Origin: a virus
Taxonomy: Duplodnaviria; Heunggongvirae; Uroviricota; Caudoviricetes
Virus record (IMG/VR): IMGVR_UViG_2695420613_000009
Length of the DNA: 18,889 nucleotides
Direction: 5' to 3' (one strand)
Positions 1-3,000 of this stretch are shown one piece after another. Within the stretch, counting starts at the first letter, position 1; every line of letters begins with the position of its first letter. The position numbers are program-made.

Positions 1-3000
1 AAAGCGCACAGTCAGCGGAACAAAGCAGGATAGCGGCGGAAGAGGCCGTAAACCGAATCCCCACGGTGGTGGGGCCTCCCGGGCCAAAGGGGGAACCGGG
101 TCCCGCGGGTCCTCAGGGGCCGAAGGGAGATAAAGGAGAGCGTGGAGACACCGGTCCGGCAGGGGCAACCGGTGAAAGGGGGCCGGCAGGTGATGCTGGT
201 CCGGCAGGCCCGGCAGGCCCGGCAGGCCCACAGGGACCGAAAGGAGAAACAGGTGCGGCTGGCCCGGTGGGGGCAACCGGACCTCAGGGGCCGAAGGGCG
301 ACCCGGGGGAGACGCAAATACGGTTCCGTCTGGGGCCGGGAAACATTATTGAGACAAACAGCCATGGCTGGTTCCCGGATACAGATGGCGCACTCATCAC
401 CGGACTGACCTTTCTTGACCCCAAAGATGCCACACGGGTTCAGGGTTTTTTTCAGCATTTGCAGGTCAGGTTTGGTGACGGGCCGTGGCAGGATGTCAAG
501 GGGCTGGATGAAGTGGGCAGTGATACAGGCAGAACAGGAGAATGACATGAATATTTTGAGAAAGCTTATGCAGAGTCTGTGCGGTTGCGGAAAGCATGAT
601 GACTGTGAAAACGGGCAGTCGCTTACAGCACAACTGCGACTGGGACCGGCAGACATTCTGGAGTCAGATGAGAATGGCATTATTCCGGAGCAGGACAGGG
701 TAATCACACAGGTGGTGATACTGGATGCAGATAAAAAGCAGATACAGTGTGTGGTAAGACCGCTGCAAATCCTGCGTGCTGACGGGACGTGGGAAAATAT
801 TGGCGGGATGAAATAGCCGACAGCTTCACAAAAACCGGAGCCCGGCTCCGGTTTTTGTTGTCATGTATAGGGGGGGGTTATTAGAGAGTGAAGTAATAAA
901 CATGTTAATACGATGGAGTGAAGGATGCCGTGTAATTCTGGTTCAAGAGTTTTTTATGCCGGAAAATCGCAGGATTATTCTGGATAGTAAAGAATCCTGG
1001 TTAATAATCTGTGATAGTCAGTTGGGCCATTTAATGCGCAGTATGTATCAGGGACGCCGTTTTATTCAGCTGAATCTGGAAAAATTGAAAGGGGTACATG
1101 ATGTCGCCTTGCCAGTGAAATGGGAATTCACACGAAGACAGTGAATAGCTTTCTGTATACGGGAATGGCGAAAAATGGACTGTATGGTGTGAGTGTGAAA
1201 CATCTTGCGTGTGCGGAGTGATGCTTCTCGTTGCTACAGCGGCAATGATAATGCAGTGAAAAAAGGGGAGCAATATGCTCCCCCAAACCGAAAGAAAATT
1301 GCAATAATCAATGAAGTTATTTAGTCATCATCAGAATGTCATGCAAGGCATTTTGTTTCAGTGATGCCGATCGCGATTTTAGCGAATTCCATCATAAATC
1401 CCCTGATTTTTAAGCCTGAAGCAGTCAAAGGAATTTCTATGCCCTATATCGATATCACCACGATGCGTGGGATGATGCCGCGCGTTGTGACATCCATGCT
1501 GCCCGAGCATTCCGCTGTACTGGCGGAGGACTGCCATTTCCGGTTTGGTGTTATTACACCAGAACGTCAGATATCCGGGGTTGAGAAAACATTCACAATT
1601 AAGCCAAAAACAATTTTTCATTACCGTGACGATTTCTGGTTTGCATGGCCGGATGTGGTGGATGTGATCCGCAGTCCGATCGCTCAGGACCCCCACGGGC
1701 GTATTTACTACACTGACGGGCGTTTTCCTAAAGTGACGGATGCGACTATTGCCACAAAAGGGGACGGGAATCACCCGACATCATCGTATCGTCTGGGGAT
1801 CCCCGCGCCGACGACAGCTCCTGTCTGTACTGTTCAGCAGGGCGGTGATGTTTCTGACGATAACCCGAATGATGATGAAACCCGGTTTTATACGGAAACC
1901 TTTGTCTCAGATTATGGTGAAGAAGGTCCGCCAGGTCCGGCGTCTCTGGAGGTAACACTCCGTACTCCGGGAACTGCGGTACAACTGACGCTGGCTCCGG
2001 TGCCATTGCAGAATGCCAGTATTAAACGTCGCCGGATTTATCGCTCTGCATCAGGTGGAGGGGAGGCGGATTTTTTACTTGTGGCTGAACTGGATGCATC
2101 CGTGCTCAGTTACACGGACAAAATACCGGCGAAAAACCTTGGGCCTTCCCTGGCGACATGGGATTACCTGCCGCCGCCAGAGAATATGACAGGCCTTTGC
2201 CTGATGGCTAACGGTATTGCCGCCGGGTTTGCCGGTAATGAAGTGATGTTTTCGGAAGCGTATCTGCCGTATGCATGGCCGGAAGTGAATCGTCACACGA
2301 CGGCAGAAGATATTGTAGCTATCTGTCCGCTGGGAACGTCACTGGTGGTGGCGACAAAGGGGGAGCCTTATTTGTTCAGTGGGGTATCACCGTCCACAAT
2401 TTCTGGTTCCAAAATCCCTTCAATGCAGGCGTGTCTGAGCAGGCGGAGTATGGTTGCGATGGAGGGTTTTGTGCTGTATGCAGGAACAAATGGCCTGGTG
2501 TCTGTTGATGCAAACGGTAATGTCGCGCTGGCGACGGAACAGATTGTTTCACCGGAACAGTGGCAGAGTCAGTTTAATCCGGCCTCCATTGTGGCTTATC
2601 CCTGGCGTGGTGAATACATTGCCTGTTACACGAAACCGGATGGTAAGCAGGATGTGTTTGTATTCAGTCCGGTGAACATGGATATCCGTTATCTCAGTAC
2701 ACCGTTTGACTGCGCATGGGTTGATCTCGCGAAAGATATGATGCGCGTGGTGACAGGAGACAAAATGTCAGTGCTTGCCGGGGGGGCTCTGCCCTCCACG
2801 ATAAGGTGGCATTCAAAAATTTTTTCATTACCTGAAAGAACCTCTTTTTCCTGTATCAGGGTGAAATCTCCGGCGCCTGAGCGGGTGGGGATCACCATTA
2901 TGGCTGATGATGTTCCTGTGATTCATTTTGCGCCGGGTACGTTTAAGGGAAGTGTGGTGAGACTTCCGGCAGCAACCGGGCAAAACTGGCAGGTGATGGT

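Follow-up and report, generated by a model that had tools for sequence, protein, structure and literature searches.

Morons are stretches of extra DNA lying between conserved late genes (Juhala et al., 2000, as cited in PMC4104026). The site analyzed here is an AT-rich island at about 800–1400 of an 18,889-nucleotide stretch of phage DNA (IMG/VR record IMGVR_UViG_2695420613_000009; hereafter the window, whose numbering is used throughout). Judged by identity, the window corresponds to late-region DNA of the Shiga toxin 2 (Stx2) phage 933W, or prophage Sp5 of Escherichia coli O157:H7 Sakai: positions 780–1460 are 100% identical to phage 933W, to VT2-Sakai and to more than 150 other Stx-phage records, and a window position equals the position in Sakai NC_002695.2 minus 1,286,316. 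The Sp5 late genes lie on the + strand; those concerned here are L0121 (a collagen-like tail fiber), L0122, L0123 and L0124 in 933W, and ECs1228, ECs1229, ECs1230, ECs1231 (later withdrawn) and ECs1232 in Sakai. The original prediction described a small regulatory module, made up of an AT-rich island, a run of eight G residues, an orphan open reading frame (ORF) and a minus-strand terminator. The composition is as described (GC 0.40–0.455 in the island, against 0.51–0.72 to the left and 0.51–0.56 to the right), but one coherent module is not supported, the parts having different histories. We consider it probable that the island is a decayed accessory (moron-type) cassette, placed at a cargo hot-spot between the side-tail-fiber genes and L0124/ECs1232, with antisense transcription that ends at a hairpin at 1264–1284.

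Morons and other exchangeable cargo loci next to the tail-fiber genes of lambdoid prophages resemble the island in being low in GC (here by about 0.1), bracketed by terminators, variable among relatives and dispensable. The insert lies between late genes, and in related phages the same site holds different cargos, namely an Eib adhesin with a regulator, Cor, or none. The cargo of 933W, however, is dead: it has no intact gene and no detectable promoter of its own, and its surviving terminator faces against the operon. The eib locus of phage P-EibD (AF151675: eibD, ORF-156D, ORF-60D, L0124D) shares with the island its position, both small genes, the hairpin and the leader; in P-EibD, Eib and both small genes are intact, whereas 933W has a tail-fiber C-terminal gene and fragments only. 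As for RNA, AsxR, AgvB, StxS and HnrS, the Hfq-binding prophage small RNAs (sRNAs) of enterohemorrhagic E. coli (EHEC), are likewise encoded by Sakai prophages and represented in data from cross-linking and analysis of cDNA with Hfq (Hfq-CRAC), and they too have a U-rich stretch before an intrinsic terminator and a late-region cargo insertion site. The site considered here, intergenic region int_1209, differs in having no sequence or structure kinship with them, in lying 20 kb from the PR′/stx moron site, and in never having been named. Lambda OOP (cited in PMC7547250) and P22 sar, which are cis-antisense RNAs of temperate phages, are also short counter-operon transcripts ended by an intrinsic terminator; they belong, however, to early or immunity regions and have a defined target gene, while the candidate described below overlaps an untranslated stretch upstream of a late gene. 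The locus joins known kinds, the moron-type cargo site and, probably, the Hfq-bound EHEC prophage RNAs, and is not a new kind.

Remains of a regulator and peptide cassette

In intact relatives the site holds two genes, one for a 156-residue regulator of two domains, the first receiver-like and the second a helix-turn-helix (HTH) of LuxR/GerE type, and the other for a tail-anchored membrane peptide of 43–60 residues. Three intact counterparts are available. P-EibD has, downstream of its eib adhesin gene, ORF-156D, ORF-60D and the L0124 homologue in that order; PhiR12_2_star has a 167-residue ORF and a 57-residue ORF, followed by a convergent dinI; and Stx1a_NIID112183 (locus L018) has a 180-residue ORF, the central part of which is about 95% identical in DNA to L0123. 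Loci in IMG/VR also carry intact homologues of the regulator.

The ORF of the original prediction is present: it is L0123 (ECs1230, Sp5 ORF69), on the + strand at 863–1144, with alternative starts at 902 and 956, and it encodes 93 residues from 863, 80 from 902 and 62 from 956, the current RefSeq start. It had been said to hold no recognizable motifs. In PHROGs, however, it matches the 156-residue family phrog_6585 (E = 1.7e-29) over profile positions 21–85 of 156, and it is not an orphan gene but a fragment of a regulator gene of the ORF-156D family. The fragment has a family of its own as well, phrog_2014, because it is annotated so often. On its alignment to the intact genes, L0123 is a chimeric ORF, made of a former leader and codons ~23–77 of an ORF-156D-type regulator gene, and running out of frame at its end. 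It is a fragment because three events destroyed the regulator/peptide pair.

The first event is seen in block alignments as the absence from 933W of 174 bp that lie, in Stx1a_NIID112183, between two copies of AAGGATGCC. A single copy remains in the window (921–929, + strand); Stx1a_NIID112183 has both, at 3146–3155 and 3319–3330, with the start codon at 3259 in between. This lesion, a deletion between the short direct repeats, took the ribosome-binding site, the start codon and about 22 codons of the regulator gene, and because the start was removed, the first ~20 residues of "L0123" are the translated former leader. The second event lies at 1102–1107, where about 110–117 bp of the intact gene, about 113 bp by the block alignments, are lost and the allele switches; distant BLAST matches likewise show the island as a mosaic with a break at 1102. 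To the left of 1102 the DNA is about 95% L018-like, and P-EibD is only 69–71% identical; to the right, PhiR12_2_star is 93%, P-EibD 85–89% and Stx1a_NIID112183 only 73% identical. Deletion or recombination at this point removed the middle of the regulator and put its DNA-binding part out of frame. Translation and block alignments place this 3′ end, with the HTH part RLASEMGIHTKTVNSFLYTGMAKNGLYGVSVKHLACAE, at 1102–1221 on the + strand (stop at 1219–1221), where the part encoding RLASEMGIHTKTVNSFLYTGMAKNGL... is now in another frame. The third event, another deletion, reduced the ORF-60 gene to its last 12 codons and stop, MLLVATAAMIMQ (1221–1259, + strand; aligned to ORF-60D of P-EibD, of the phrog_9340 family, and to the 57-residue ORF of PhiR12_2_star), with the other ~150 bp deleted. 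The suggestion that the island is a remnant of an exchanged cassette is supported; the cassette was an accessory pair of genes for a regulator and a small membrane peptide, a pair found beside tail-fiber genes in many prophages, and not a tail-fiber cassette.

Antitermination by Q operates in lambdoid late operons, and the debris may be tolerated because late transcription by Q-modified polymerase would read through it. The only promoter-like site in 500–1800 lies inside the dead ORF, and one such site compares with 2.4 expected by chance. Two terminators would still work in the decayed cassette, one at 828–858 in both directions and one at 1264–1284 leftward only.

The intact ORF-156D family (phrog_6585) comprises 44 clusters, all from E. 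coli and all annotated as "hypothetical", and neither the regulator nor the peptide has a match in Pfam or NCBIfam. Members include ORF-156D of P-EibD (L017, 2599–3069), the ORFs at 3259–3801 of L018 and 2617–3120 of L019, and those of IMG/VR loci L064–L070; in P-EibD-type phages the gene is directly downstream of that for the Eib immunoglobulin-binding adhesin, and in long-tailed prophages it adjoins NleG/EspJ effector genes. An AlphaFold model for the ORF-156D family, from an alignment of 21 sequences, has a mean predicted local distance difference test score (pLDDT) of 84 and a predicted template modeling score (pTM) of 0.77. The model contains a receiver-like alpha/beta domain and a four-helix LuxR-type DNA-binding domain, and its top 30 Foldseek matches in the PDB are all response regulators of the NarL/FixJ type (StyR, LiaR, DesR, FixJ, RcsB, VraR, DosR, EvgA and VpsT among them), mostly with a probability of 0.9–1.0 (0.66–0.89 for six lower-ranked) and E values of ~1e-3 to 3e-2. 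Searched against PDB sequences, the ORF-156D profile finds LuxR/GerE HTH proteins only, weakly (E ~0.07). In the alignment an Asp is kept at the end of strand 3, and RN stands after strand 1 in place of the acidic pair (DD) of receivers. Because this pair is absent, phosphorylation of ORF-156D is doubtful, and the protein is probably an atypical, phosphorylation-independent regulator. The regulator is not PsrA/PsrB, which are AraC-type proteins.

The leftward terminator and a candidate Hfq-bound RNA

The terminator scan reports an intrinsic terminator at 1259–1284 on the minus strand only, as originally predicted. It reads GGGGGAGCA-UAU-UGCUCCCCU followed by U5–6 on that strand, and consists of a 9-bp stem (1264–1284) with six G-C pairs and a loop of 3, followed by a minus-strand T-run at 1263–1259; the stem is present in both the minimum free energy and the centroid structures. 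No allele has a T-run after the hairpin on the + strand, and all have A5–A7 on that side. We aligned six loci with three cargos, namely 933W; P-EibD and UCPROB-001 (Eib and regulator); and phage 86, O104:H4 and SD134209 (Cor). The 20-nt bin that contains the hairpin has 95% invariant columns, against 45–55% in the flanking 20-nt bins; apart from this bin, only 35–60% of the columns are invariant across 1220–1355. From ~1355 rightwards, including the coding start of L0124, the six loci are nearly identical, and this part is, by the alignment, a recombination block. A homologous hairpin follows the homologous stop codon in PhiR12_2_star, with GGGGAGT...ACTCCCC in place of GGGGAGC...GCTCCCC; as read from the two sequences, the C-G to U-A change is compensatory, keeping the pairing. 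The hairpin is kept with the Eib, Cor and fiber-C cargos, all of them lacking a gene on the minus strand, and to its right in 933W we found no credible minus-strand coding sequence (CDS), in line with the original prediction.

The 24-mer of the hairpin also occurs in GTDB genomes, in unrelated metagenome-assembled genomes, as an ordinary bidirectional terminator. Its occurrence there marks it as a competent terminator hairpin; it also means that sequence identity by itself proves little. A 21-mer from the leader has no match in the GTDB genomes. The 24-mer was found in addition on a 601-bp contig of Xanthomonas pisi DSM 18956 (NZ_JPLE01000137.1; L118), which is identical to the 933W island over the ~200 bases inspected and is almost certainly E. 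coli/Stx-phage contamination. Distant phages have non-homologous, minus-oriented terminators 50–280 nt upstream of their L0124 homologues (L047–L049, L086, L088, L096, L097), that of L096 lying directly after the stop of a + strand tail-fiber-assembly gene. Among distinct upstream sequences, 21 of 37 have a minus-oriented terminator and 4 a plus-oriented one; many of these are copies of the same hairpin.

Evidence for a transcript comes from the Hfq-CRAC data, in which int_1209 (ECs1231...ECs1232) ranks 27th among intergenic regions, with 81206, 6030, 70478, 146246 and 3140 reads under "sense" in the five samples and 0 under "anti-sense" (Tree et al., 2014, Table S1B). The meaning of these columns is unstated for intergenic features, and the strand was assigned by a calibration of our own. 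The genes spf, ssrA, micA, cyaR, chiX, gadY, pspAB and narKG are all on the + strand in K-12, and the intervals beside them have their reads under "anti-sense"; the intervals beside ryhB, oxyS and sroC, on the minus strand, have theirs under "sense". Intervals within Sp5 were calibrated too: that of AsxR, which is listed as "−" and has 80 times the signal of the "+" EcOnc27, is mostly "sense"; that of EcOnc31/43 ("−") is "sense"; and the PR′–StxS interval, in the stx2 direction, is "anti-sense". The "sense" column calibrates as minus, and by this calibration the reads of int_1209 are on the minus strand. The sRNA list of the same study retains a peak only if it lies antisense to a CDS or at a distance of over 100 bp from any CDS (Tree et al., 2014), and the int_1209 site is absent from it; StxS of Sp5 is known to have been lost through the same filter. 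The site would have stayed unnamed because peaks within 100 bp of a CDS were dropped.

The candidate RNA would have its body at 1285–1385 on the minus strand, the end at 1385 being a guess. It has the U-rich AAUUUUCUUUCGGUUU just 5′ of the terminator, so that the minus strand reads AAUUUUCUUUCGGUUU-hairpin-UUUUUU, the arrangement of the usual Hfq-binding 3′ module; the other allele reads UCUUUCUUCUGGUC-hairpin-U5–7, and the body of the RNA exists in two diverged alleles. An unannotated antisense sRNA probably ends at the hairpin 1264–1284. The suggestion of an antisense or small RNA ending near 1258 thereby gains indirect backing, from a hairpin conserved within diverged sequence and from Hfq-CRAC reads on the minus strand. 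We infer that a single discrete RNA with its 3′ end at the hairpin gave rise to the reads; any regulatory role would be a further step of the same kind. Transcription would start in or near the L0124 leader and stop at the hairpin, yielding an RNA with the Hfq-binding module and keeping antisense transcription out of the tail-fiber genes. More broadly, and tentatively, phages of the 933W/Sp5, P-EibD and O104:H4 types may encode an unnamed Hfq-dependent antisense RNA of ~70–130 nt, reaching from the ECs1232/L0124 leader to the hairpin and present as two alleles, which would modulate host mRNAs in lysogeny or else the expression of the essential late genes that follow; we hold this as a possibility on the weaker side of even.

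Rfam contains no family with a match in the window at gathering thresholds (AgvB/AsxR, RF02702 and RF02703 included), and the covariance-model scan extended to E values up to 10 over 780–1500 gave no AgvB/AsxR match; the RsaOG and DapZ matches that it returned are chance matches driven by the terminator. The locus is not that of AsxR, AgvB, EcOnc27 or StxS, which lie at the stx/PR′ site, nor that of HnrS, which lies in Sp9, Sp10 and Sp12, nor that of PasB, which is present in only 24 phage genomes.

Several observations weigh against a decayed cassette with antisense transcription ending at the hairpin. CRAC counts are given per interval, and the borders of int_1209 depend on the old annotation of ECs1231, for which an exact protein look-up finds records with a + strand ORF of 37–39 residues (1205/1211–1324) and a minus-strand ORF of 80 residues (1031–1273). 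The minus-strand assignment comes from our calibration and not from a statement of Tree et al. On the minus strand, 1285–1560 has no sigma-70-type promoter, only weak −10-like hexamers, with candidates at 1391–1396 and 1376–1381, and a consensus structure over nine sequence versions shows nothing beyond the terminator (covariation term −0.01). Nearly identical hairpins arise independently in unrelated bacteria, which weakens arguments from identity, and in PhiR12_2_star the hairpin adjoins a convergent dinI, so that in 933W it could be a leftover. Lastly, deletion of ORF69 has a phenotype (see below), and the wreck of the cassette is then not entirely neutral.

Of the alternatives, the one that survives best would have the hairpin be a relic without function, which once ended a convergent gene (dinI, for example) since lost from 933W-type phages, and the reads be a product of pervasive antisense transcription that stops there by chance. 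It fits the position of the hairpin in PhiR12_2_star, between the stops of the ORF-60 homologue and dinI, and accords with a minus-strand RNA for which no promoter was found in 933W and whose body has no conserved structure. A relic would not be expected, however, to stay ~95% invariant between alleles whose flanks are at 45–55%, or to be kept with three cargos that all lack a minus-strand gene, and the reads are comparable in number to those of the AsxR interval and strictly one-stranded in 5/5 samples. To the right of the 933W hairpin we found no similarity to dinI. We regard this explanation as unlikely, though it keeps appreciable weight.

L0123, the peptide and the G tract as possible functional elements

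The decay of the cassette bears on whether any of its parts still acts. A functional L0123/ORF69 protein, in which the fragment of the receiver domain served as a regulator or as a dominant-negative partner, would explain the phenotype of a deletion of ORF69 (window 911–1132, according to the primers): the phage could still infect, and plaques and lysogens rose several-fold in number, for which the authors suggested a regulatory role of ORF69 (Mondal et al.). The stretch is dispensable but not neutral; no complementation of the phenotype was reported. The retention of 80 codons in most 933W-type loci and the existence of phrog_2014 also speak for a protein. Nevertheless, L0123 has no LuxR/GerE HTH in frame with its N-terminal domain, as a NarL/FixJ regulator would; the first strand-helix of its receiver-like domain is missing, as is the entire DNA-binding domain; its N-terminal residues come from a leader that was formerly non-coding; and annotators disagree, placing the start variously at 863, 902 and 956. 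We surveyed 37 loci of the 933W type, in eight sequence versions. Read from ATG 863, 22 of the 37 have an open frame and the other 15 meet a stop after 6–7 codons, which affects no intact gene; the frame from ATG 902 encodes 80 residues in most, shortened to 77 by a nonsense mutation in six and to 66 by an A5-to-A6 frameshift in one. These variants hint weakly at relaxed constraint, weakly because the loci are about 99% identical and too alike for a test of selection. A functional L0123 seems to us improbable.

The peptide raises a different question. The intact ORF-60D product, of 43–60 residues, is tail-anchored, a single hydrophobic helix coming after a basic stretch, and matches phrog_9340. 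Its gene always precedes the hairpin (P-EibD L017, 3069–3251; the upstream region of L046; L019, 3125–3298), and its last codons are kept even where the remainder is deleted. The antisense RNA may have begun as the partner of the adjacent 43-residue membrane peptide. That the two form, more specifically, a convergent pair like a type I toxin and its regulatory RNA, orphaned in 933W by the deletion of the peptide, is suggested by the size and build of the peptide, by an antisense terminator that abuts the peptide stop codon in every allele, and by deletions that always spare the last codons and the hairpin. An RNA that ends at the stop codon would, however, have no overlap with the coding region; phrog_9340 carries a function-less annotation, NCBIfam gives no match, and several phages have only a remnant of the peptide together with the RNA region. 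Such a pair is very improbable.

The G8 homopolymer (870–877, + strand) lies, as predicted, five bases past ATG 863, at the junction of the shared tail-fiber module and the cargo region. It is the sole G8/C8 in the window; dinucleotide shuffles of the window give 1.09 on average, with at least one in 111 of 200, so that by itself the run does not exceed chance. Its length is not invariant, since G7, G8, G9C and G10C occur among loci otherwise about 99% identical, and Stx1a_NIID112183, with an intact regulator, has TGGGGGATGTTTG at this position and no homopolymer. A tract of G8 lets ATG 863 read on into L0123; one of G7 ends that frame after six codons. The tract is bracketed by TTGTCA (858–863) and TATTAG (879–884), at which the promoter scan calls nothing; the spacer between them is 14, 15, 17 and 18 nt for G7, G8, G9C and G10C. 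Given a spacer of 15 nt for G8 and of 18 nt in the intact-cassette phage, a former promoter is conceivable here.

Homopolymer contingency loci are phase-variable genes of Neisseria and Haemophilus. The tract resembles them in being a run of 7–10 G that differs among close relatives at the 5′ end of an ORF; it differs in that no intact gene or promoter depends on it, the ORF being a start-less fragment without a DNA-binding domain and no promoter being detected. A slipped-strand tract had been proposed, and the polymorphism from G7 to G10 exists, but the gene downstream is already destroyed, and the tract is a mutable homopolymer and at most a putative switch. A phase switch, in which slippage would turn translation at ATG 863 on and off or alter the spacer of a promoter serving the island in the lysogen, is the least credible of the alternatives, for although the length varies and would open or close the frame or reset the spacer, nothing intact is left to switch, the intact-gene phage has no homopolymer, one G8 is what chance provides, the conserved final T is absent from the putative −10, and sequencing error may underlie homopolymer differences between assemblies. 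We regard the tract as a homopolymer prone to slippage, in the decaying DNA of a dead gene's former leader.

Flanking genes, other signals and implications

The last intact gene before the island is L0122/ECs1229, for a tail-fiber C-terminal domain (547–816, + strand, RefSeq coordinates; PF06820 Phage_fiber_C, E = 5e-36). In the 933W and VT2-Sakai records it is 390 bp long (415–816) and overlaps the tail-fiber gene, and in RefSeq it has 270 bp. Directly after it, at 828–858, is a hairpin absent from the original prediction, which by its fold is a bidirectional intrinsic terminator on both strands. It is perfectly symmetric, with a 14-bp stem, a core of CCGGAGC-CCG-GCTCCGG, and flanks of A5 and T5, the pairing of which extends the stem; the consensus terminator scan missed it because these A/T pairs carry the stem into the T-run. 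Its energy is −23.2 kcal/mol (z = −5.5), and none of 200 shuffles was equally stable. Homology to the tail-fiber C-terminal modules of many lambdoid prophages (median 8 places per genome) crosses this terminator and stops at ~866–874, that is, at the G tract; the hairpin closes the tail-fiber module.

At the right end of the island lies L0124/ECs1232, with a Shine-Dalgarno AAGGA (1428–1432) and an ATG at 1439 (together 1428–1441, + strand). GenBank entries for 933W and VT2-Sakai begin the gene at GTG 1361 (567 residues), and RefSeq/PGAP begins it at ATG 1439 (541 residues), in four genomes. Homologues with 42–62% identity align from residue 1–4 of the 1439 start, and P-EibD has ATA at the position of the ATG at 1364; to judge from these alignments, the true start should be 1439. 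The protein is labeled "internal virion protein" in PHROGs (phrog_511).

Two other Hfq-CRAC peaks fall within the window. EcOnc53 (Sakai 1292386–1292438, minus; Northern "not detected"; Tree et al., 2014) corresponds to 6070–6122, just after lom. The segment 6090–6630 has a + strand terminator at 6094–6112 and minus or bidirectional terminators at 6452–6475 and 6603–6626. The region downstream of lom is presumably that in which the "24B_1" small RNA of phi24B was described. EcOnc36 (Sakai 1301433–1301515, minus, 5/5 datasets, with a predicted terminator) corresponds to 15117–15199 and is antisense inside the giant ORF80/ECs1242, for which the CDS table gives 26613 antisense against 1456 sense reads.

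These findings leave the understanding of phage late operons unchanged; their practical value lies in annotation and in one sRNA candidate. L0123/ECs1230 (phrog_2014), which hundreds of records of Stx phages and EHEC list as a "hypothetical protein", should be annotated as a fragment of an ORF-156D-family gene, a pseudogene, and L0124 as starting at 1439. ORF-156D itself is an uncharacterized, predicted regulator of NarL/FixJ-like fold and, because its gene sits beside those for Eib adhesins, a plausible regulator of the eib genes. ECs1232 is essential for infectious particles, and the antisense RNA, if true, would add a candidate Hfq-bound RNA of medically important Stx2 phages, directly upstream of that gene.

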